A DNA stretch of 64,000 nt, from the NCBI GenBank assembly GCA_964570515.1, contig CAZMYM010000007.1, forward strand, positions 9,397 through 73,396. Reading direction: 5' to 3'. The notes under the pieces were generated by a model that saw only the letters and a program-made list of their open reading frames with translations, had not been told where the DNA came from and ran no database searches. This document shows, one piece after another, positions 5,045 through 39,249 of the stretch (positions are counted from its first letter, which is position 1; each line of letters opens with the position of its first letter). A program made the position numbers and the translations under genes. This DNA comes from an uncultured Thermotogae bacterium. Its GTDB lineage: Bacteria; Bipolaricaulota; Bipolaricaulia; UBA7950; UBA9294.

Positions 5045-7006
5045 ATGGACAAGTCCCGCGTTCTCGTTTGCAGTGCGTGGCCGTACGCGTCGGGCATGCC
5101 CCACTTGGGAAACCTCATCGGCTGTCTTCTGTCAGGGGACGTGTTCGCGCGGTACTACCGCATGCGCGGAAAGGACGTGCTCTACGTCTCCGGGTCGGAC
5201 GTCCATGGGACTCGCGTCGAGTACGAAGCAGAGCGACAGGCGATTCCCCCGGCGACGTTGGCCGAGCGGAACCATCGCCGAATCGTGGAGATCAACCGCG
5301 GCTTCGGAATCGAGTTCGACAACTACACCACGACTGAGACGGCGACGCACAAGGGGTTCGTGCGTGAGATCTACCTCCAGATGGAGTCGAACGGGTACAT
5401 CTGTACGAAGGAGGAGAGGCGCGCGTTCTGCCTCCACTGCGAGCGGTTCCTCGCAGATCGCTTGATCGCGGGAACCTGCCCGCGATGTGGATCCGCGAAC
5501 GCGCTCGGCAATCAGTGCGACTCCTGCGGGGCGATCCTCGAGCCGGAAGAACTGGTGGATCCTACCTGCAGCTTCTGCGGGATGAACGACATCGAGTTCC
5601 GGAAGACGCGGCACTGGTACTTGGACCTGGAACGGCTGAGCGAGCCGTTGCGCGACTACGTGACGTCGAAGAGCTTCCAGGGTAACGTACGCTTGTACAC
5701 GGAGCGGATGCTCGATGAGGGGCTTCGCCCTCGCGCGATGACCCGTGATATCGACTGGGGAATCGCCGCCCCATTCGAAGGAGCGGAGGGGAAGGTCATC
5801 TACGTATGGGGCGAGGCGGCTCTCGGCTACGTTTCGGCAGTGATTGAGCACTTCGACGGCGTCGAGCGGTGGAAGGACTTCTGGTTCGGCGACGACGTCC
5901 ATCAGGTGTACACCTTGGCGAAAGACAACATCGCGTTCCACACCCTGATCTTCCCCGGCCAGCTGATCGCGTCGGGCCAGGGCTACCACTTGCCGGATCA
6001 GATCGCCGCCACTGAATACCTGAACTGGGTCGGAGGCGGCAGCTTCTCCAAGACTCGCGGCGTCGGCCTGTACTGCGACGACGCTCTGGAAGTGATGGAT
6101 GGCGAGCTGTGGCGGTTCTATCTGCTATACAACCGGCCGGAAGGGCGCGACGTCAACTTCTCGTGGGAAGAGCTGGAGAAGGCGGTCAACGGCGTGTTGA
6201 TCTCGAATGTCGCGAACCTGATGAATCGCGTCATCTCCTTCGTTCAAACGCAGTTCGACGGTGTCGTGCCGCGCGTCGATCTCGACCCTGAAGTCGTCGA
6301 ACGCGTCGACGCGGGGAGGACGACCTATGAAGACGCGCTGGAACGGGGTGCGCTGGGCGAGGCGCTGCGATCCGTCTGCGAACTGGCTGTGTTCGGGAAC
6401 GAGTACTTCCAGAGGAAGAAGCCTTGGGAGACGAAGGACGAGGCGGCTGTAGCGAGCGGCGTGTACCTGGTCAAGGGGATGGCGATCCAACTGGCGCCGT
6501 ATCTGCCGAGATTCGCGTCTGCGGTGCTGTCGGTGCTGGGCGTGTCCGATCCGCGGTGGGAGGACATCGACCGTTCCATCGGAGGATCGAAGCTGGGAGA
6601 GGAGCGCGTTCTGCTCGAGCGGATTGATGTTGGTGAGATCCGCGAACGCGTGGAGCGACAGGAAGAGCGAGTTGAGGAGACCGAAGTGGCCATTTCGTTC
6701 TCAGATTTCGAGAAGGTGGATCTTCGTGTTGGCGTGATTGCCGCAGCTTCAGAGGTCGCGGGGGCCGAGAAGCTGTTGCAGCTCTCGGTCGATTTCGGAG
6801 ATCGTACGCGAAGCTGTGTCGCCGGCATCAAGGAGAGCTACGCGCCGGACGACTTGATCGGGAAGCACGTGGTCGCGGTGGTCAACCTGGAACCCCGGAC
6901 GATACGTGGACTACAATCAGAGTGCATGCTTCTTGCCGCGCAGGGTGAGGAGCTTTCGCTTGTAGTCGTCGACAGGCCTGTGGAGCCGGGGAGTGCGATT
7001 TCTTAG
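5045..7006 (+). CDS. metG: Methionyl-tRNA synthetase with C-terminal tRNA-binding (Trbp111/EMAP-like) domain
   Basis: Class I signatures 'PYASGMPHLGNL' (HIGH-like) and 'SFSKTRG' (KMSKS-like), a Zn-knuckle 'CPRCG...CDSCG', and the C-terminal motif 'DLRVGVI...VVNLEPRTIRG'. Confidence 0.95.
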   Translation: MDKSRVLVCSAWPYASGMPHLGNLIGCLLSGDVFARYYRMRGKDVLYVSGSDVHGTRVEYEAERQAIPPATLAERNHRRIVEINRGFGIEFDNYTTTETATHKGFVREIYLQMESNGYICTKEERRAFCLHCERFLADRLIAGTCPRCGSANALGNQCDSCGAILEPEELVDPTCSFCGMNDIEFRKTRHWYLDLERLSEPLRDYVTSKSFQGNVRLYTERMLDEGLRPRAMTRDIDWGIAAPFEGAEGKVIYVWGEAALGYVSAVIEHFDGVERWKDFWFGDDVHQVYTLAKDNIAFHTLIFPGQLIASGQGYHLPDQIAATEYLNWVGGGSFSKTRGVGLYCDDALEVMDGELWRFYLLYNRPEGRDVNFSWEELEKAVNGVLISNVANLMNRVISFVQTQFDGVVPRVDLDPEVVERVDAGRTTYEDALERGALGEALRSVCELAVFGNEYFQRKKPWETKDEAAVASGVYLVKGMAIQLAPYLPRFASAVLSVLGVSDPRWEDIDRSIGGSKLGEERVLLERIDVGEIRERVERQEERVEETEVAISFSDFEKVDLRVGVIAAASEVAGAEKLLQLSVDFGDRTRSCVAGIKESYAPDDLIGKHVVAVVNLEPRTIRGLQSECMLLAAQGEELSLVVVDRPVEPGSAIS

Positions 7007-9355: not shown

Positions 9356-9947
9356 AGTCGGAGTGTTCGGCGGCACGTTCAACCCGATTCACAATGGGCA
9401 CATCCTGATTGCCAGGACTGCGGTTTCGCAGTTCGAGCTCTCGCAGGTCGTGTTCATCCCGAACGGGATACCGCCTGACAGGCAGAAGGAAGCGCGACCA
9501 GGCAAGGAAGACCGCTTCCAGATGGTCGCCGATGCGGTCGCTGGCGAAGACGGGCTAGATGTTTCGCGCATCGAGGTGGATCGCGAAGGGCCATCCTATA
9601 CCATTGACACGATTCGGGCTTTGAAGGAAGATTACCGGGAAGGGATCTGCTTCATCATCGGAGCGGATCGCCTGGCTCGAATTGACAGATGGAAAGAACC
9701 GGAAGCGATCATCGCGAGTGTGCCGTTCATCGTCGCGCCGCGCGCGGGTGTGTCGCTCTCTGCTTTCGACCGGGGACTGTTCGTTGAGGCGTCGGTTTGG
9801 GCGCTTGAGATGTCTGAGGTTGACCTCTCATCGACGGTTCTGCGCGAGAGAGTGCGGCGAGGCGAGCCGATCCGAGAATCGGTTCCCGCTTCCGTGGAGG
9901 CGTACATCGTGAAGCACAGGCTGTATCGGGGTGCCGAAGAGGCGTAG
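9312..9947 (+). CDS. nadD: Nicotinate-nucleotide adenylyltransferase
   Basis: 'GVFGGTFNPIHNGH' (HxGH motif). The start is uncertain: ATG 9312 overlaps the obg 3' end, and the in-frame TTG 9345 or GTG 9363 are alternatives. Confidence 0.85.
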   Translation: MRFGLARWSLSLTGRVGVFGGTFNPIHNGHILIARTAVSQFELSQVVFIPNGIPPDRQKEARPGKEDRFQMVADAVAGEDGLDVSRIEVDREGPSYTIDTIRALKEDYREGICFIIGADRLARIDRWKEPEAIIASVPFIVAPRAGVSLSAFDRGLFVEASVWALEMSEVDLSSTVLRERVRRGEPIRESVPASVEAYIVKHRLYRGAEEA

Positions 9948-13289: not shown

Positions 13290-13412
13290 TCGACCACTCG
13301 GCGCTTCGCGCTCAGTGGCTTGGGCGTCTCTCCCTTTCGGTCGAGAGTCTTGGTACAATGACATTCCGCAGTTGCGCATGAACGATGTCAGTGCAGCCTC
13401 TGGGGGCGGAAT

Positions 13413-13485
13413 GGGCGAATAGCTCAGCTGGGAGAGCGTTCGGGTCACATCCGAAAGGTCGCAGGTTCGAGCCCTGCTTCGCCCA
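13413..13485 (+). tRNA. tRNA-Val (anticodon CAC)
   Basis: Cloverleaf read by eye: acceptor GGGCGAA/TTCGCCC, D-stem GCTC/GAGC, anticodon stem TTCGG/CCGAA with loop GTCACAT, T-arm GCAGG-TTCGAGC-CCTGC. CCA is not encoded. Confidence 0.9.
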
Positions 13486-13494
13486 AGAGACCGA

Positions 13495-16399: not shown

Positions 16400-16756
16400 A
16401 GCTCGAGAGAGGGCCGATAAGCCGGATTCTGTCGTGGGAAGACATCCATCTATGCGGCCTACCCGAAGGCTCGGACGGGCAGTCCTCGTGCGCCTTCCTA
16501 TTTGGCCTTGCTCCGACCAGGGTTTGCCGAGCCGGCCCGGTCGCCCGAGCCGCTGGTGGTCTCTTACACCGCCGTTTCACCCTTGCCTGATCCCGAGCTT
16601 GTGGGCTCGGGCCATCGGCGGTCTGCTCTCTGTGGCACTTTCCCGGGGTCGCCCCCGCTGAGATTTCCTCAGTGGCCTGCCCTTTGGAGTCCGGACTTTC
16701 CTCCAGCCACTCAGCCATGCCGAGCAGCCGGCGTCTCCCTGGCCCTCTCTCGCGTC
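16400..16756 (-). ncRNA. rnpB: RNase P RNA (bacterial type A)
   Basis: The minus strand carries the universally conserved 'GGAGGAAAGUCCGGACUCC' (complement of 16687-16705) and 'ACAGAAUCCGGCUUAUCGGCC' (P4 3' strand, about 16411-16431). P1 pairs GAGAGAGGGCC (5' end near 16752) with GGCCCUCUCUC (3' end near 16404). Confidence 0.88.
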
Positions 16757-28452: not shown

Positions 28453-30164
28453 TCGTCCCCCTCCTCCACCAGATGCAGCTGGACATCTCTCACTTCTATC
28501 GGCACTTGCGTGCCCGGAACCTCTCTCGTGCGATCGGACACCGCCAGCAGCCACGTCCCGGCATCGAGGCGATACTCCTTGATGATGGCTTCCAGAAGCT
28601 CCCCGTAGAGAGACCGGTTGCCTACGCTCCGCACGGGAATCCTGTCAGCAAGCACAGCCGACGAGTCGCCTGGGGGGATCCGTGGAATCTGGTACAGGTA
28701 ACCATCGACGAGGACGAACCCAACGTCAAGCTCGTAGAACAGCGTGTTCGATATCTGGACCGTCATCGCCCTTCTGTCGAGGGCGAAGGACATCAGGCGC
28801 CGCGGCGAGCCGTAGTGACGGAAGTCGCGGACTTCGTTGGCCTGAATGGCGAATTGAAACAGCCCCTCGTCGGTGGCGGACGAGAATGACGTGTGCGGCG
28901 TGCTGTTCACCAGCGCATAGGTTGGCACGCTCACCTTGTCGCGCGGTATGCTGGCGGTCCGCGTGGTCGCCGGTGATACAAAACCGGCGTAACCTAGTGA
29001 GATACCGTGCGTTGCATGCGTCTGAATACTGAAATCTAACTGGAAAAGCTCAACAAGCTGTTTCGCAGGGTTTGCATAGAAACCGGACCAAACCGACACT
29101 CCGACCAGTAGCGCTACTACAGCCAACACGGTAATGCCCATCACTAGAGGATTTCCCGTCGCTCGTCTGCGTGCGATTCCCCAGCGAAGCGCCGCGACGC
29201 AGCCGAGGATGATCACGACGAGGGTTGGGGCAATCAAGTAGATGGGGCGCGGGACGCGCATGCTGCCGCGAAACTCGCTACCGAAACGGAGAAGGGAGTA
29301 CCAGTCAGCGCCGGGAATCCGAGCTCCGATGTCTGCCATCCGATCAGCCGCCAGGTCGGGGGCTCGGACGCTAACCACGGAGACAGTTCCTGCGCCGTAG
29401 GTCGTTTGGTACAGCAGTGGGCTTCCCGCCTGATTGTCGGAGAGGACGACCGGAATGGACTCCATTGGCTCTCCAGCCAAGTAGGGCGTCCCGTCCGGGA
29501 AGTGACCCATCGTGGTTTCGCGCAACGGGAACAGCTTGCGGAATGCCGGTGACTCAATCTGGTAGTAGTCCTCCCCCGTGAAGACGACGATGGAGCCGCC
29601 GGCGAACACCCACTGGGCGATGGCCTGCCAGGCTGCGGTGCTGATGCCGCCTCCGTTGATCCACAGGCTGTCGACGCTCTCGTACGCCCACCACTCCGTG
29701 GGGAGTTCAGAGGGTGAAACGACCACCTCCAGTGCACCAAGAGGGATCGCTGGACCGCTCACAACAGGGAAACGGGCGGTTCGCTGGAAGAGGCGGACGT
29801 TCGTCGACTGCTCGACGATCAAACGTCCATCGGAGGAGAGCACCGCGACGTCGATCGGATTGAGTGGATCGAAGATCGGAATCGTTCCGGCGTACGTGCC
29901 GTTGTCCAGCGTTCCGTGGACCAGATCGACGGTTACGACGTCCGGGTTCTGGTCAATGGCGCCAATGCGTTGTGTGACGCGCAGGATGCCGTCGATCGGG
30001 GTATCTACTCCGCTGAGATCAATCCGTATCGGGGCATACCGGCTCGCCATAACGCTCGAGGAGTAGCCCACGTGGATTTCGAGACGCTGAGCTTGTGTCG
30101 CGACGGCGCATGACAGGATCCCCACCGCGACGCAGAGTAGCGCTTTCGAGTATCGATTCGACAC
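28449..30164 (-). CDS. Signal-peptide protein with two internal TM helices (possibly DUF4350/ThuA-like), first gene of the MoxR operon
   Basis: Signal peptide 'LLCVAVGILSCAVATQAQ'; 'WINGGGIS...WVFAGGSIVVFTGE'; TM pair around 'IYLIAPTLVVIILGCVAAL...VLAVVALLVGVSVW'. Confidence 0.65.
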   Translation of the reverse strand: MSNRYSKALLCVAVGILSCAVATQAQRLEIHVGYSSSVMASRYAPIRIDLSGVDTPIDGILRVTQRIGAIDQNPDVVTVDLVHGTLDNGTYAGTIPIFDPLNPIDVAVLSSDGRLIVEQSTNVRLFQRTARFPVVSGPAIPLGALEVVVSPSELPTEWWAYESVDSLWINGGGISTAAWQAIAQWVFAGGSIVVFTGEDYYQIESPAFRKLFPLRETTMGHFPDGTPYLAGEPMESIPVVLSDNQAGSPLLYQTTYGAGTVSVVSVRAPDLAADRMADIGARIPGADWYSLLRFGSEFRGSMRVPRPIYLIAPTLVVIILGCVAALRWGIARRRATGNPLVMGITVLAVVALLVGVSVWSGFYANPAKQLVELFQLDFSIQTHATHGISLGYAGFVSPATTRTASIPRDKVSVPTYALVNSTPHTSFSSATDEGLFQFAIQANEVRDFRHYGSPRRLMSFALDRRAMTVQISNTLFYELDVGFVLVDGYLYQIPRIPPGDSSAVLADRIPVRSVGNRSLYGELLEAIIKEYRLDAGTWLLAVSDRTREVPGTQVPIEVRDVQLHLVEEGDE

Positions 30165-30263: not shown

Positions 30264-30881
30264 CTACTGCGGCAGATTGTCCACAGCGATCGCGGCATCC
30301 TCACTGAGCACGTCGGCGTAGATCTGGGTCGTCTGGACCGAGCGGTGCCCCAACTGCTTCTGCACGAGCCGGAGGTTGTACTTCGATGCGCGATAGAGCA
30401 TGGACGCGTAGGTGTGTCGGCACGAGTGAATCGAGAACCTCTGTGGGAGCCCCACTGCCCCGGCGTTGGCGCGGAAGATGCGGTAGACGGCCGTACGCGT
30501 TAGCGCGCCGCCTCTTGAGGAGACAAACAGCGGAGCGTGAGACGCCGTCGATTCGCCAAGACGCTCTTTGTACCCGATGAACTGTGCAAGATGGTTGCGA
30601 AGCGCCGAGCCGACGCGAACGCCACGTTTCTTGTCGCCTTTCCCGCTCCGCACGATCAGCGAGGCGTGTTGACGGTCGAGGATCACATCGCGTACCCGCA
30701 GGGCGCAGATCTCGGAAACGCGCAATCCCGAGTCGAGGGCCACGTGAAGGATCGCCCAGTCCCGCACGGGCCGTTCTCGGCCGTCGACGGAGCCGTTCTC
30801 GGCACGGCGGCGGCAGTGATCCTTGAGGGCGGCCACCTCATCGGGGGCGAGGAAATCCTCATGGGTGATCTCGAGTGGCAT
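30264..30881 (-). CDS. Tyrosine recombinase, catalytic domain only (205 aa)
   Basis: 'GLRVSEICALRVRDV' (Arg), 'HSCRHTYAS' (HxxR), 'LGHRSVQTTQIYADV' (His + Tyr nucleophile). The ATG at 30881 is preceded by AGGAGG. The 278-aa ORF-track version adds a low-complexity N-terminus with no SD. Confidence 0.85.
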   Translation of the reverse strand: MPLEITHEDFLAPDEVAALKDHCRRRAENGSVDGRERPVRDWAILHVALDSGLRVSEICALRVRDVILDRQHASLIVRSGKGDKKRGVRVGSALRNHLAQFIGYKERLGESTASHAPLFVSSRGGALTRTAVYRIFRANAGAVGLPQRFSIHSCRHTYASMLYRASKYNLRLVQKQLGHRSVQTTQIYADVLSEDAAIAVDNLPQ

Positions 30882-31004
30882 GGCCCTCCTTCTGGGGCGC
30901 CCGTGGAGGGGTGCCCCTCCGTTTCGGTCGTGTGGAGGGTTGTCTCCCTCTCCGAGCGCCGGCGGAAGGGTAGTGGGCGCAACCGAATCGAGGAGAGACA
31001 ACTG

Positions 31005-31032
31005 TCGCAACAAAAGGGTACTTTTGTTGCGA
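31005..31032. repeat. Perfect 28-bp palindrome TCGCAACAAAA-GGGTAC-TTTTGTTGCGA (candidate recombinase core site)
   Basis: Read directly. It parses as 12-bp perfect inverted arms with a 4-bp centre, or equivalently as 11+6+11. AT-rich in a GC-rich context; lies between the HD gene stop (31170) and the recombinase start (30881). Confidence 0.8.
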
Positions 31033-31169: not shown

Positions 31170-31943
31170 TCAGTCGATCGAGTATCGCTCGACGATCTTC
31201 TCTTCCTCCCCAGCGATGTCGGCGATCACTTCGACGTAGGGGGCGAGGGTCGAGTTCTTCAGCTTCTCGCGAAGGAGATTGTCGAGCTGAAAGATGCCGG
31301 CGGAGTTGGACATCTCGATGGCGATTCGGATTGGCCGCGTCTCCCCCGCGCCGAGCCTCACCTTCCGGATCGCCATCGCTGAGACCGAATGGATGGTCTG
31401 CTCGCCGGTCGAGAACGGGATGCGGGCCCTTCCGGACTCCATGTCGAGTGCGTCGGCCACCTTCACAACCCCGGCTTCGATCGTAAGCGGTTGGATGTCG
31501 CGCTGGTGGGCGTAGATGGCATGGAGTGTTTCCCCCTTGACGATCGTCTTCGTTCGGTCGTCGTAGAGGCCCTCGAGGAACTCGTCGATCAGCGGAGCCG
31601 CGAGAACGAGAGAGAGCGTCTCGTGGTTGCGGCGGTGGATGACATGGCCAATGTCGTGGAGAACGCTTGCGAGCACGACGATCGTCTCGGCGTCCTCGCC
31701 GCGCAGACCGTGATCGGTCACTGCGCTCGGCGATACGTCCGCTTCGACAAGGAGCCGCAGAAGCTTCAGGCCGATGTTAGCGATGATCCGAATGTGAACG
31801 GGGCCATGATCGTTGATGTGCATCCGATCGACCGCGGTCACGTTCGAGCTTGTCCAGAGGGCATCAAGCGACGCAGACTGATCGAGGCGCTCAACCAGTC
31901 GTTCGAGGGTCTCGTTTCCTCGTGTCGGGAGTCTAAGTTGCAT
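31170..31943 (-). CDS. HD-domain metal-dependent phosphohydrolase
   Basis: 'HINDHGPVHIRI...' and 'LASVLHDIGHVIHRRNHE' (H...HD signature). The ATG at 31943 has a GGAGG 6 nt upstream. Confidence 0.8.
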   Translation of the reverse strand: MQLRLPTRGNETLERLVERLDQSASLDALWTSSNVTAVDRMHINDHGPVHIRIIANIGLKLLRLLVEADVSPSAVTDHGLRGEDAETIVVLASVLHDIGHVIHRRNHETLSLVLAAPLIDEFLEGLYDDRTKTIVKGETLHAIYAHQRDIQPLTIEAGVVKVADALDMESGRARIPFSTGEQTIHSVSAMAIRKVRLGAGETRPIRIAIEMSNSAGIFQLDNLLREKLKNSTLAPYVEVIADIAGEEEKIVERYSID

Positions 31944-32424
31944 CGACATCCTCCCGGAGCCGCTCCCACCACGTGGGGAGATCTCTCTGCGTCGCAGGTA
32001 CGGCCGATTGGAGGCGCGTTTCGAGATACGCGACACGTTTGCGCAGAAACGCGATCTCCTGGCGCAGGACGTTCGCAGCGGACGCGGTTTCATGAGGTTT
32101 CGTATCGTGCGATACGAAACGTGGCGAAACACCAGTTTCTGTACTAGCCTGCGCGGACGTCTTAGCTCGCAGAACTGCGCTCGCCTCCGTGATCGTTAGT
32201 CCGCTATCGTACAATTCCTGCAGCTGTCGCAGCAATGTGGCGCCTTCGTCCGTGATGAGGATCTGGTTGTTGGGCCCGCGGCGCAGATGATCCGCCAAGA
32301 CGTCTTTGATCGCATCGATGCGATTTCGGACTTGATGGGTCGTGGCGAGGTCGAGCGTCTTCCGGAGGCTGCTGATCGTGTGCATCCTGAAGTGAACGAT
32401 ACGCGAGGATGAGGAGGGGGGCAA
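31933..32424 (-). CDS. Hypothetical protein with predicted N-terminal helix-turn-helix-like region and C-terminal coiled coil
   Basis: 'LATTHQVRNRIDAIKDVL' and 'ANVLRQEIAFLRKRVAYLETRL'. Overlaps the HD gene start by 11 nt. Start uncertain (TTG 32424 or ATG 32385). Confidence 0.5.
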   Translation of the reverse strand: MPPSSSSRIVHFRMHTISSLRKTLDLATTHQVRNRIDAIKDVLADHLRRGPNNQILITDEGATLLRQLQELYDSGLTITEASAVLRAKTSAQASTETGVSPRFVSHDTKPHETASAANVLRQEIAFLRKRVAYLETRLQSAVPATQRDLPTWWERLREDVDAT

Positions 32425-38968: not shown

Positions 38969-39047
38969 GACGACGGGGGATTCTCCAGGATTTCTGCGAC
39001 CCTACCAACGAACATCCCGGACTCCGTAGGAGCTCCGGGATGCATCC

Positions 39048-39136
<89 letters not shown>

Positions 39137-39249
39137 AAGCGTACACAACGAGCCGACAGACGACAAGCGGACGCCGTCGGTGCCGCTTCGCTTACCCGCG
39201 CTTCCTCACCGGCTGCCGGTTTTGCTGCGTATTGCCGAAGATAGTTACG

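Follow-up and report, generated by a model that had tools for sequence, protein, structure and literature searches.

The stretch of 64,000 nucleotides analysed here (positions 9,397 to 73,396 of contig CAZMYM010000007.1 in assembly GCA_964570515.1; in the following called the window) originates from an uncultured bacterium of the phylum Bipolaricaulota and harbors a gene for a tyrosine recombinase of only 205 amino acids (aa), with a perfect 28-bp palindrome upstream of its start codon. The palindrome is probably the cognate recombination site of this enzyme. Together they might form a single-recombinase module of the Xer/dif type, in which the recombinase consists of the catalytic domain only and serves the resolution of chromosome dimers; we assign to this complete reading a probability of about 0.5. 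A first-pass annotation of the window had proposed a single-recombinase module for resolution, inversion or integration. Our comparisons support the recombination module as such, which survived the tests of whether the palindrome is conserved and whether the protein starts further upstream. Among the three proposed reactions resolution fits best and integration is suggested by copies of the site on phages, whereas inversion is disfavored because only one core site was found.

The short length of the recombinase is not an artefact of gene prediction. The start codon ATG at 30881 with an AGGAGG motif 4-9 nt before it, as suggested in the first-pass annotation, was borne out, and the resulting length of 205 aa agrees with the lengths of the orthologues, with public gene calls and with in-frame stop codons upstream. 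A protein search retrieved more than 100 orthologues with 73-100% identity, almost all of them 204-206 aa long, and all named ones among them belong to Candidatus Bipolaricaulota/Acetothermia. Public gene calls on four contigs encoding the identical protein also give 205 aa, and in 26 orthologous loci an in-frame stop codon is situated 3-54 nt 5' of the start. The only domain recognized by Pfam is PF00589 (Phage_integrase, E=2.5e-31), with a match beginning at about residue 10, and the AlphaFold model (pLDDT 81.8) comprises the catalytic domain plus one extra N-terminal helix. The sole PF00589 match, the missing 5' extension and this model agree with the earlier notion that the N-terminal core-binding (SAM-like) domain is lacking.

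The protein is a member of the tyrosine recombinase superfamily. Its catalytic set was found to be complete (R54, K81, H152, R155, H179 and Y188), as had been claimed, and these six residues align with the catalytic residues of XerA and XerD. None of them is exchanged in any of 32 orthologues; hence, DNA cleavage is under selection. Among proteins of known structure, the best sequence matches were XerA (5hxy, E=1.4e-18), a second archaeal Xer, XerD, IntI4 and XerH. Similarly, a Foldseek search with the model ranked the catalytic domains of XerA and XerH highest (TMq 0.71-0.74, compared to 0.44-0.55 over two-domain targets; E=1.3e-10 for 5hxy), and the catalytic domains of IntI4 and Cre matched as well. 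In the NCBIfam collection, the recombinase scored 125.4 bits with the XerC model (cutoff 335), 119.4 with XerA (220), 119 with XerD (330) and 94.7 with XerS (267). It thus remains below every curated Xer equivalog cutoff, and the Xer models align only from their positions 95-124 onwards, i.e. with their C-terminal halves. The PHROGs collection classifies it as an integrase, and PADLOC reported no match to a defence system. The C-terminal tail is predicted to be disordered, yet D195, A196, A199, V200, L203, P204 and Q205 are invariant, a pattern that would be expected of a segment docking on a neighbouring subunit.

The palindrome TCGCAACAAAAGGGTACTTTTGTTGCGA was read out directly from the window, and a repeat search returned it as two arms of 12 nt each (31005-31016 and 31021-31032), 100% complementary and separated by 4 nt. 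The first-pass annotation had described 11-bp arms around a 6-bp spacer, which is equivalent since the flanking G and C of that spacer pair too, but the division into 12-4-12 reads better. The observation that the site is AT-rich in a GC-rich background was confirmed, with a GC content of 43% in the 28-mer and of about 62% in the window. The 64-kb window contains neither a second copy of the 28-mer with up to 3 mismatches, for which shuffled sequences give an expectation of 0, nor an additional half-site with up to 1 mismatch.

In a survey of one genome per GTDB species, 174 stretches were found to encode a relative of the recombinase, and the best 80 of these 174 were analysed. An inverted-repeat search 5' of the orthologues detected the palindrome in 78 of the 80 loci; one of the two exceptions is N-masked and the other bears a slightly degenerate copy, such that the site is retained in all 79 informative species loci. 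The expected conservation next to orthologous recombinases was also seen in metagenomes, where 114 of the 120 site-bearing contigs among the matches listed show the host locus. In total, 183 host loci with 129 distinct sites gave the consensus TCGCAACAAAAG-N4-CTTTTGTTGCGA, followed by CAnnTGTCC. The site is always situated upstream of the gene, with 54-156 bp (median 62) between its end and the start codon. When the intergenic sequences are anchored on the site, conservation peaks sharply over the arms, and no other intergenic element comes near the palindrome in conservation; each arm is near-invariant over its full 12 bp, though the proteins of different species share only 60-75% identity. 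The centre occurs in 21 different 4-nt forms with the consensus T-R-C-C in gene orientation, and not one of the 129 distinct host sites has a palindromic centre. A target of a telomere resolvase (protelomerase) was ruled out because of this asymmetry.

The gap of about 125 bp to the gene that had been noted in the first-pass annotation is correct for the window (123 bp) but exceeds the orthologue median of 62 bp, because a unit of the leader is duplicated there. This degenerate duplication of about 30 nt covers 30881-30899 and 30912-30930. In some lineages a unit of about 30 nt that includes the ribosome-binding site (TCCGTCCGAGACGAAGCGAGGAGGGACTCA) is tandemly repeated between palindrome and start codon, with at least four perfect copies in L124:2646-2765, many partly N-masked copies in L002 (upstream of 3001) and two degenerate ones in the window. 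It might be possible that these leader repeats tune translation.

A divergent clade of 15 species is instructive regarding the function of the arms. Its sites keep the inner part ACAAAAG-N4-CTTTTGT, while the outer arms are altered on both sides to TT(T/G/A). Using a weight matrix from the arms of this clade, a third arm copy was identified in 15 of 15 loci at 50-52 nt past the palindrome. It is oriented like the gene-proximal arm and reaches scores of 13.7-22.7 (maximum possible 23.1); in several loci a fourth copy follows 21 nt beyond the third. In those loci of the clade where a promoter of the type TTGACA-N17-TAAAGT is readable, the palindrome lies about 35 nt upstream of this promoter and the third copy overlaps its -10 element. 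The isolated half-sites (L062-L079, for example CTTATGTAAAGT) lie 50-73 nt downstream of the palindrome and reach the start region of the promoter. In the main clade, a -10-like element is found about 30 nt downstream of the palindrome. Since isolated single arms cannot form hairpins, the arm is best read as a protein-binding half-site and not as a mere hairpin, and the position of the extra half-sites over the promoter makes self-repression by the recombinase probable in this clade.

The same observations leave hardly any room for the view that the palindrome is only an RNA hairpin, acting as terminator or stabilizer of the HD transcript (the gene upstream encodes an HD-domain protein) or as a leader structure. 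The RNA could form a stable 12-bp stem 138 bp past the HD stop codon, and the surrounding 68-nt stretch folds at -20.2 kcal/mol (z = -4.4). However, no intrinsic terminator is predicted on either strand, the AT-rich stem is not followed by a T-run that would give a U-tract, and the Rfam search gave no match at the palindrome. Furthermore, it is the sequence itself that is conserved and not just the pairing, the divergent clade retains single arms at a constant distance, and phages carry this sequence in unrelated surroundings.

The palindrome could also be mainly a transcriptional operator of the recombinase gene, bound by the recombinase or by the MerR-like protein p150 encoded two genes upstream, with the true recombination targets, if any, located elsewhere. 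Such a role would be in line with the position of the site shortly before the start codon (54-156 bp in all loci), and the arm copies overlapping the promoter in the divergent clade indicate a regulatory use of the motif. In its geometry, the invariant 7-4-7 core (ACAAAAG-N4-CTTTTGT) corresponds to operators of the MerR family such as merO and the SoxR boxes. However, MerR-type operators are centred in a promoter spacer of 19-20 bp, while the palindrome is located upstream of the promoter or -10-like element; a scan with sigma-70 consensus sequences found no promoter over the palindrome or in the leader of the window. Isolated half-sites are also unsuited to an obligate MerR dimer; half-sites of a monomer type fit the recombinase and not an obligate-dimer regulator. 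The conservation of 12-bp arms among proteins with 60-75% identity would be unusual for an operator, and an operator function does not account for the invariant catalytic residues or for site-bearing phages that encode neither p150 nor the host recombinase. Moreover, the half-site scan of the loci did not find a second site near the promoter of p150 itself. Overall, we regard the operator as a rather unlikely explanation.

Returning to the recombination module, the genomic context points to a function for the host. The recombinase gene is a vertically inherited core gene of the Bipolaricaulota and not a recently acquired mobile element. The best 80 loci are all on Bipolaricaulota-type contigs, though some bear other NCBI labels, and the order MutL (opposite strand)/p150 - HD - site - recombinase - p571 is kept in 64-77 of the 80 loci. 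Conservation within this block is highest for the recombinase (58-85% identity) and the HD protein, the HD gene being located upstream of the recombinase gene in 77 of the 80 species loci. Neither the window nor related loci adding up to about 1.3 Mb contain a paralogue of the recombinase. The strict vertical inheritance, the fixed gene order and the very strong purifying selection point to a housekeeping role.

With regard to copy number, one site was found per locus in about 200 loci. Given that there is apparently one site per chromosome, the reaction from which the host benefits would be recombination within a chromosome dimer. This distribution also bears on the comparison with FimB/FimE made in the first-pass annotation, which holds for the size of about 200 aa and the lack of a core-binding domain but not for the family relationship: the two NCBIfam models of tyrosine-type DNA invertases gave weak matches of 46.7 and 37.9 bits, far below their cutoffs of 221 and 222 as well as below the Xer scores of 119-125. 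FimB and FimE act on two inverted repeats flanking an invertible promoter and need accessory proteins, whereas the Bipolaricaulota locus has a single core site. A Fim-type invertase with a second inverted site outside the window is therefore very improbable, as neither a second site nor a further arm was detected within the 64 kb or in the sequences flanking about 200 loci and the gene order around the site is invariable.

Further copies of the site were searched for in metagenomes with the pattern CGCAACAAAAG-N4-CTTTTGTTGCG, which matched at least 120 contigs. Each of the 120 listed contigs contains one site and none a second copy. Among them, 108 have the adjoining recombinase gene, six more represent the host locus cut by the contig end with the HD gene present, and four are contigs of lower GC content (0.52-0.56) without host genes, three of which carry phage genes. 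The remaining two (L095:2352-2377 and L146:131-156; GC 0.44) bear the fully symmetric sequence GCGCAACAAAAGCTAGCTTTTGTTGCGC with no recombinase near it and are probably unrelated to the host site.

In IMG/VR, three phage contigs bear the site (L201, L202 and L203), and altogether it was found on at least five phage-like contigs without host genes (L122/L201, L153, L189, L202 and L203). L201 is the same phage as L122 and has terminase and portal genes, and the site lies near terminase genes in L201, L202 and L153. L203 has a GC content of 0.64 and a phrog_2045 gene; it was tested as a prophage junction with the host HD gene, which it is not. L202 encodes a terminase and its own catalytic-domain-only tyrosine recombinase of 200 aa (31% identical); besides the full site at 6520-6543 it has an extra isolated arm, CTTTTGTTGCGAGA, at 6699-6712, about 165 bp away from the site and about 1 kb from this recombinase gene. 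By chance, the 20 specified bases of the pattern would be expected about 0.1 times in IMG/VR (an estimate that itself uses an estimated size of the collection), and the phage matches extend past the specified pattern. The corresponding pattern of the divergent clade retrieved only phages of low GC content (0.25-0.36) from IMG/VR, which were discarded as chance matches. The phage copies are suggestive of elements that recruit the Xer enzyme of their host, such as IMEX elements, or of cer-type sites as found on plasmids.

These copies raise the question whether the site is chiefly an attachment site for phages or plasmids, and the recombinase a domesticated integrase that governs or interferes with the integration and excision of mobile elements. 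Besides the phage contigs themselves, the recombinase and extra arm of L202, the PHROGs class and the fact that the nearest relatives outside the phylum (57%, 46% and 42% identity) reside on mobile-element-like contigs would be compatible with this idea. However, no prophage junction or duplicated site was seen in about 200 host loci, and the vertical inheritance with fixed gene order and strong purifying selection as well as the absence of PADLOC defence matches speak against it. Seven other viral contigs of IMG/VR encode relatives of the L202 recombinase and have no such palindrome; hence, the site seems to follow the host and not that enzyme. We consider a primary function in attachment to be quite unlikely.

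The position of the site on the chromosome was assessed from nucleotide composition. Across the window, the GC skew of the top strand declines from roughly +0.1 to roughly -0.03; the gene-corrected values are +0.08 (left) and +0.01 (right), with no clean switch at the site. In the only closed chromosome (CP070725.1), the gene is found at 52.9% of the record, a value counted from the first base of the record and not from a mapped origin. For comparison, dif sites of Legionella are 89 bp to 79 kb away from the skew inflection.

Several observations weigh against a dif-type module or fail to support it. The maximum of the cumulative GC skew is located at about 52-54 kb and not at 31 kb, and the gene-strand bias does not flip at the site. 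No polar 6-8-mer changes its strand significantly there either; the best candidate was CCGCGAA (11:0 versus 1:8), with p=2e-5 over 4,470 tests. In about 200 loci, neither a recombination product nor a second site nor an integrated element was seen, and a half-site scan of 204 sequences for integrated elements or hybrid sites detected none except for the extra arm in phage L202. No phage centre is identical to any observed host centre. In addition, the co-conserved p150 has a MerR-like winged helix that could bind the palindrome, as the operator explanation assumes. Finally, conservation of the site is highest in the inner 7 bp of its arms. This is puzzling, since in XerH it is the N-terminal domain that accounts for most base-specific contacts with the inner 5 bp of either arm, and the Bipolaricaulota recombinase lacks this domain.

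The preferred reading gains from a comparison with known single-recombinase systems. The layout A4-N6-T4 with 11-bp arms matches the published half-sites of difSL and difH (TTTCCGAAAA and AGTTATGAAAA), and a gene next to its site is described as a hallmark of systems with a single recombinase, such as those of XerS and XerH (PMC5357621). As in XerS/difSL, there is one recombinase whose gene directly adjoins the site and is vertically inherited in a clade, and the crossover region is bordered by AAAA of one arm and TTTT of the other. However, XerS has 356 aa including an N-terminal DNA-binding domain, and the arms of difSL are unequal and imperfect with an 11-bp centre. The XerH/difH system of Helicobacter and Campylobacter also has one recombinase with its gene near the site, difH combines 10-11-bp arms (AGTTATGAAAA ...) with a 6-bp centre, and XerH is among the best structural matches of the catalytic domain. 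In contrast, XerH is a protein of 354-362 aa and the imperfect arms of difH set the order of cleavage, whereas in Bipolaricaulota the asymmetry is confined to the centre between two identical arms.

The archaeal XerA is the best match in sequence and structure (5hxy) and is likewise a single recombinase, reported to be FtsK-independent, but its chains in the PDB comprise about 290-320 residues with the core-binding domain present. The dif site of XerA resembles the bacterial consensus ATAA-N6-TTAT and is not described as adjoining the gene. XerL/dif of the Legionellales is another lineage-specific single-recombinase system that had been missed by homology searches. It was found via a mobile element (LME-1) carrying a copy of the chromosomal site, which is paralleled by the site-bearing phage contigs; XerL is roughly twice as long, with the catalytic tyrosine at 387-389. 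For XerS, the FtsK dependence and the terminus location have been shown, and there is experimental proof of the function of XerL and of its position near the GC-skew maximum. Cre/loxP of phage P1 shares one recombinase, identical inverted arms, an asymmetric spacer, the site beside the gene, a related fold and the use for the resolution of replicon multimers. Cre is a two-domain protein of 343 aa with a 13-8-13 site, and it differs in being phage-borne and not a chromosomal core gene. Taken together, the Bipolaricaulota module has the inverted arms of about 11 bp with a short asymmetric centre, the core-gene inheritance, the gene-site adjacency and the mobile-element site copies of Xer systems, while it lacks the two-domain architecture and scores below the cutoffs of the curated models. 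No description of the module or of any Xer/dif system in Bipolaricaulota/Acetothermia was found in the literature searched.

We infer the binding of the arms by the recombinase, the recombination at the arms and the role in dimer resolution from these comparisons. In such a mechanism, one recombinase monomer would bind to each of the identical arms (TCGCAACAAAA(G)). Cleavage and strand exchange would take place across the asymmetric G-NNNN-C centre, which gives the site its polarity, and recombination between both site copies of a chromosome dimer would resolve it. Site-bearing phages would employ the recombinase of the host for their integration or for the resolution of phage multimers, and the additional arms over the promoter in the divergent clade would allow the enzyme to repress its own gene. 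In its most far-reaching version, the 205-aa enzyme would be the sole chromosome-dimer resolvase of the phylum and the first Xer-type recombinase without a core-binding domain, and phages would copy the 28-bp site to integrate or resolve their genomes; this combination of claims is tentative and, in our view, rather doubtful than probable.

The protein p150 (150 aa) deserves mention in this context. It is syntenic in 71 of the 80 loci, its homologues are confined to the Bipolaricaulota, and some of them are labelled as MerR regulators by JGI. In the structure model, the N-terminal domain resembles RacA, GlnR and CueR, and the C-terminal coiled coil ends in an invariant WW motif. p150 could assist the recombinase as an accessory factor or compete with it for the palindrome. 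It would be a long shot that p150 supplies in trans the base-specific reading of the invariant inner 7-4-7 core, normally a task of the missing domain; the system would then be a split two-protein recombinase. An imperfect palindrome (32087-32130; 21-nt arms, 81% complementary, 2 nt apart) is situated inside the region coding for the poorly conserved linker of p150. The coordinates of the recombinase locus are compiled in Table 1.

Table 1. Features of the recombinase locus, given in positions of the window.
Feature	Position	Strand	Remarks
Tyrosine recombinase, catalytic domain only, Xer-like, 205 aa	30264..30881	minus	Sole domain PF00589
Leader/promoter region	30882..31004	minus	AGGAGG 30885-30890, duplicated leader, -10-like element
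Conserved -10-like CTACCCT	reverse complement of 30967-30973	minus	Putative; from conservation at a fixed distance from the site
Candidate core recombination site	31005..31032	.	Centre 31017-31020: GGTA on the plus strand, TACC in gene orientation
HD-domain protein, 257 aa	31170..31943	minus	Pfam HD; co-conserved upstream neighbour
p150, MerR/RacA-like winged helix plus coiled coil	31933..32385	minus	Weak MerR_1 match; structure model

In the window, the recombinase gene is followed on its 3' side (25501-30164, minus strand) by genes for three conserved proteins of unknown function (571, 229 and 433 aa) on the same strand, and thereafter by MoxR AAA, DUF58 and BatA/VWA genes that form a Bat-like operon. 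Ordinary housekeeping features of the window are a class A RNase P RNA (16402-16750), a thiamine pyrophosphate (TPP) riboswitch (39035-39140) and tRNA genes for Ser, Val and Pro (270-357, 13412-13486 and 20191-20267). The 130-kb contig L295 overlaps the right end of the window and stops about 3 kb beyond it at a transposase pair of the IS3 type (HTH_Tnp_1 plus rve, L295:12854-14082).

Relatives of the recombinase are also present outside the phylum. A HMMER search against 1.84 billion cluster representatives returned 52 proteins at E<=1e-30, mostly about 200-260 aa long, and the sampled contexts of the distant relatives are mobile-element-like with no shared site. The closest of them (57% identity, 212 aa) is encoded beside a DnaB-like helicase on contig L204, where a run of AAGGAGGAC-type short repeats resembling iterons was observed upstream of its gene (L204:2570-2830). 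Another relative with 46% identity is found beside an IS605 TnpB, and a third one (42% identity, 205 aa) on the 6.3-kb plasmid-like contig L297, which also encodes ParA, RepA_C, PIN and HU proteins. On this contig, a 13-7-13 palindrome (TTTATGGCGAATT-CAAGCGC-AATTCGCCATAAA, L297:3152-3184) located 34 bp after the stop codon of the relative is a candidate cognate site, which fits a role of the wider family in multimer resolution. The best matches of a protein search in PLSDB were full-length recombinases of three-recombinase ('trio') elements with 34% identity and were uninformative. Short recombinases that consist of the catalytic domain only thus appear to be a widespread, uncharacterised group, of which the Bipolaricaulota lineage looks like the chromosomal, housekeeping branch.

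If the proposed function is true, the module would represent a further kind of single-recombinase dimer resolution beside XerS, XerH, XerA and XerL, in a phylum without a cultured member. It would imply that a bare catalytic domain can recognize and recombine a simple site of the lox/dif type, which bears on how tyrosine recombinases read DNA. Moreover, the compact pair of a 205-aa enzyme and a 28-bp site would be a candidate tool for genome engineering. Finally, the site would serve as a marker that links phage contigs to their Bipolaricaulota hosts and may help to locate replication termini in assemblies of these bacteria.

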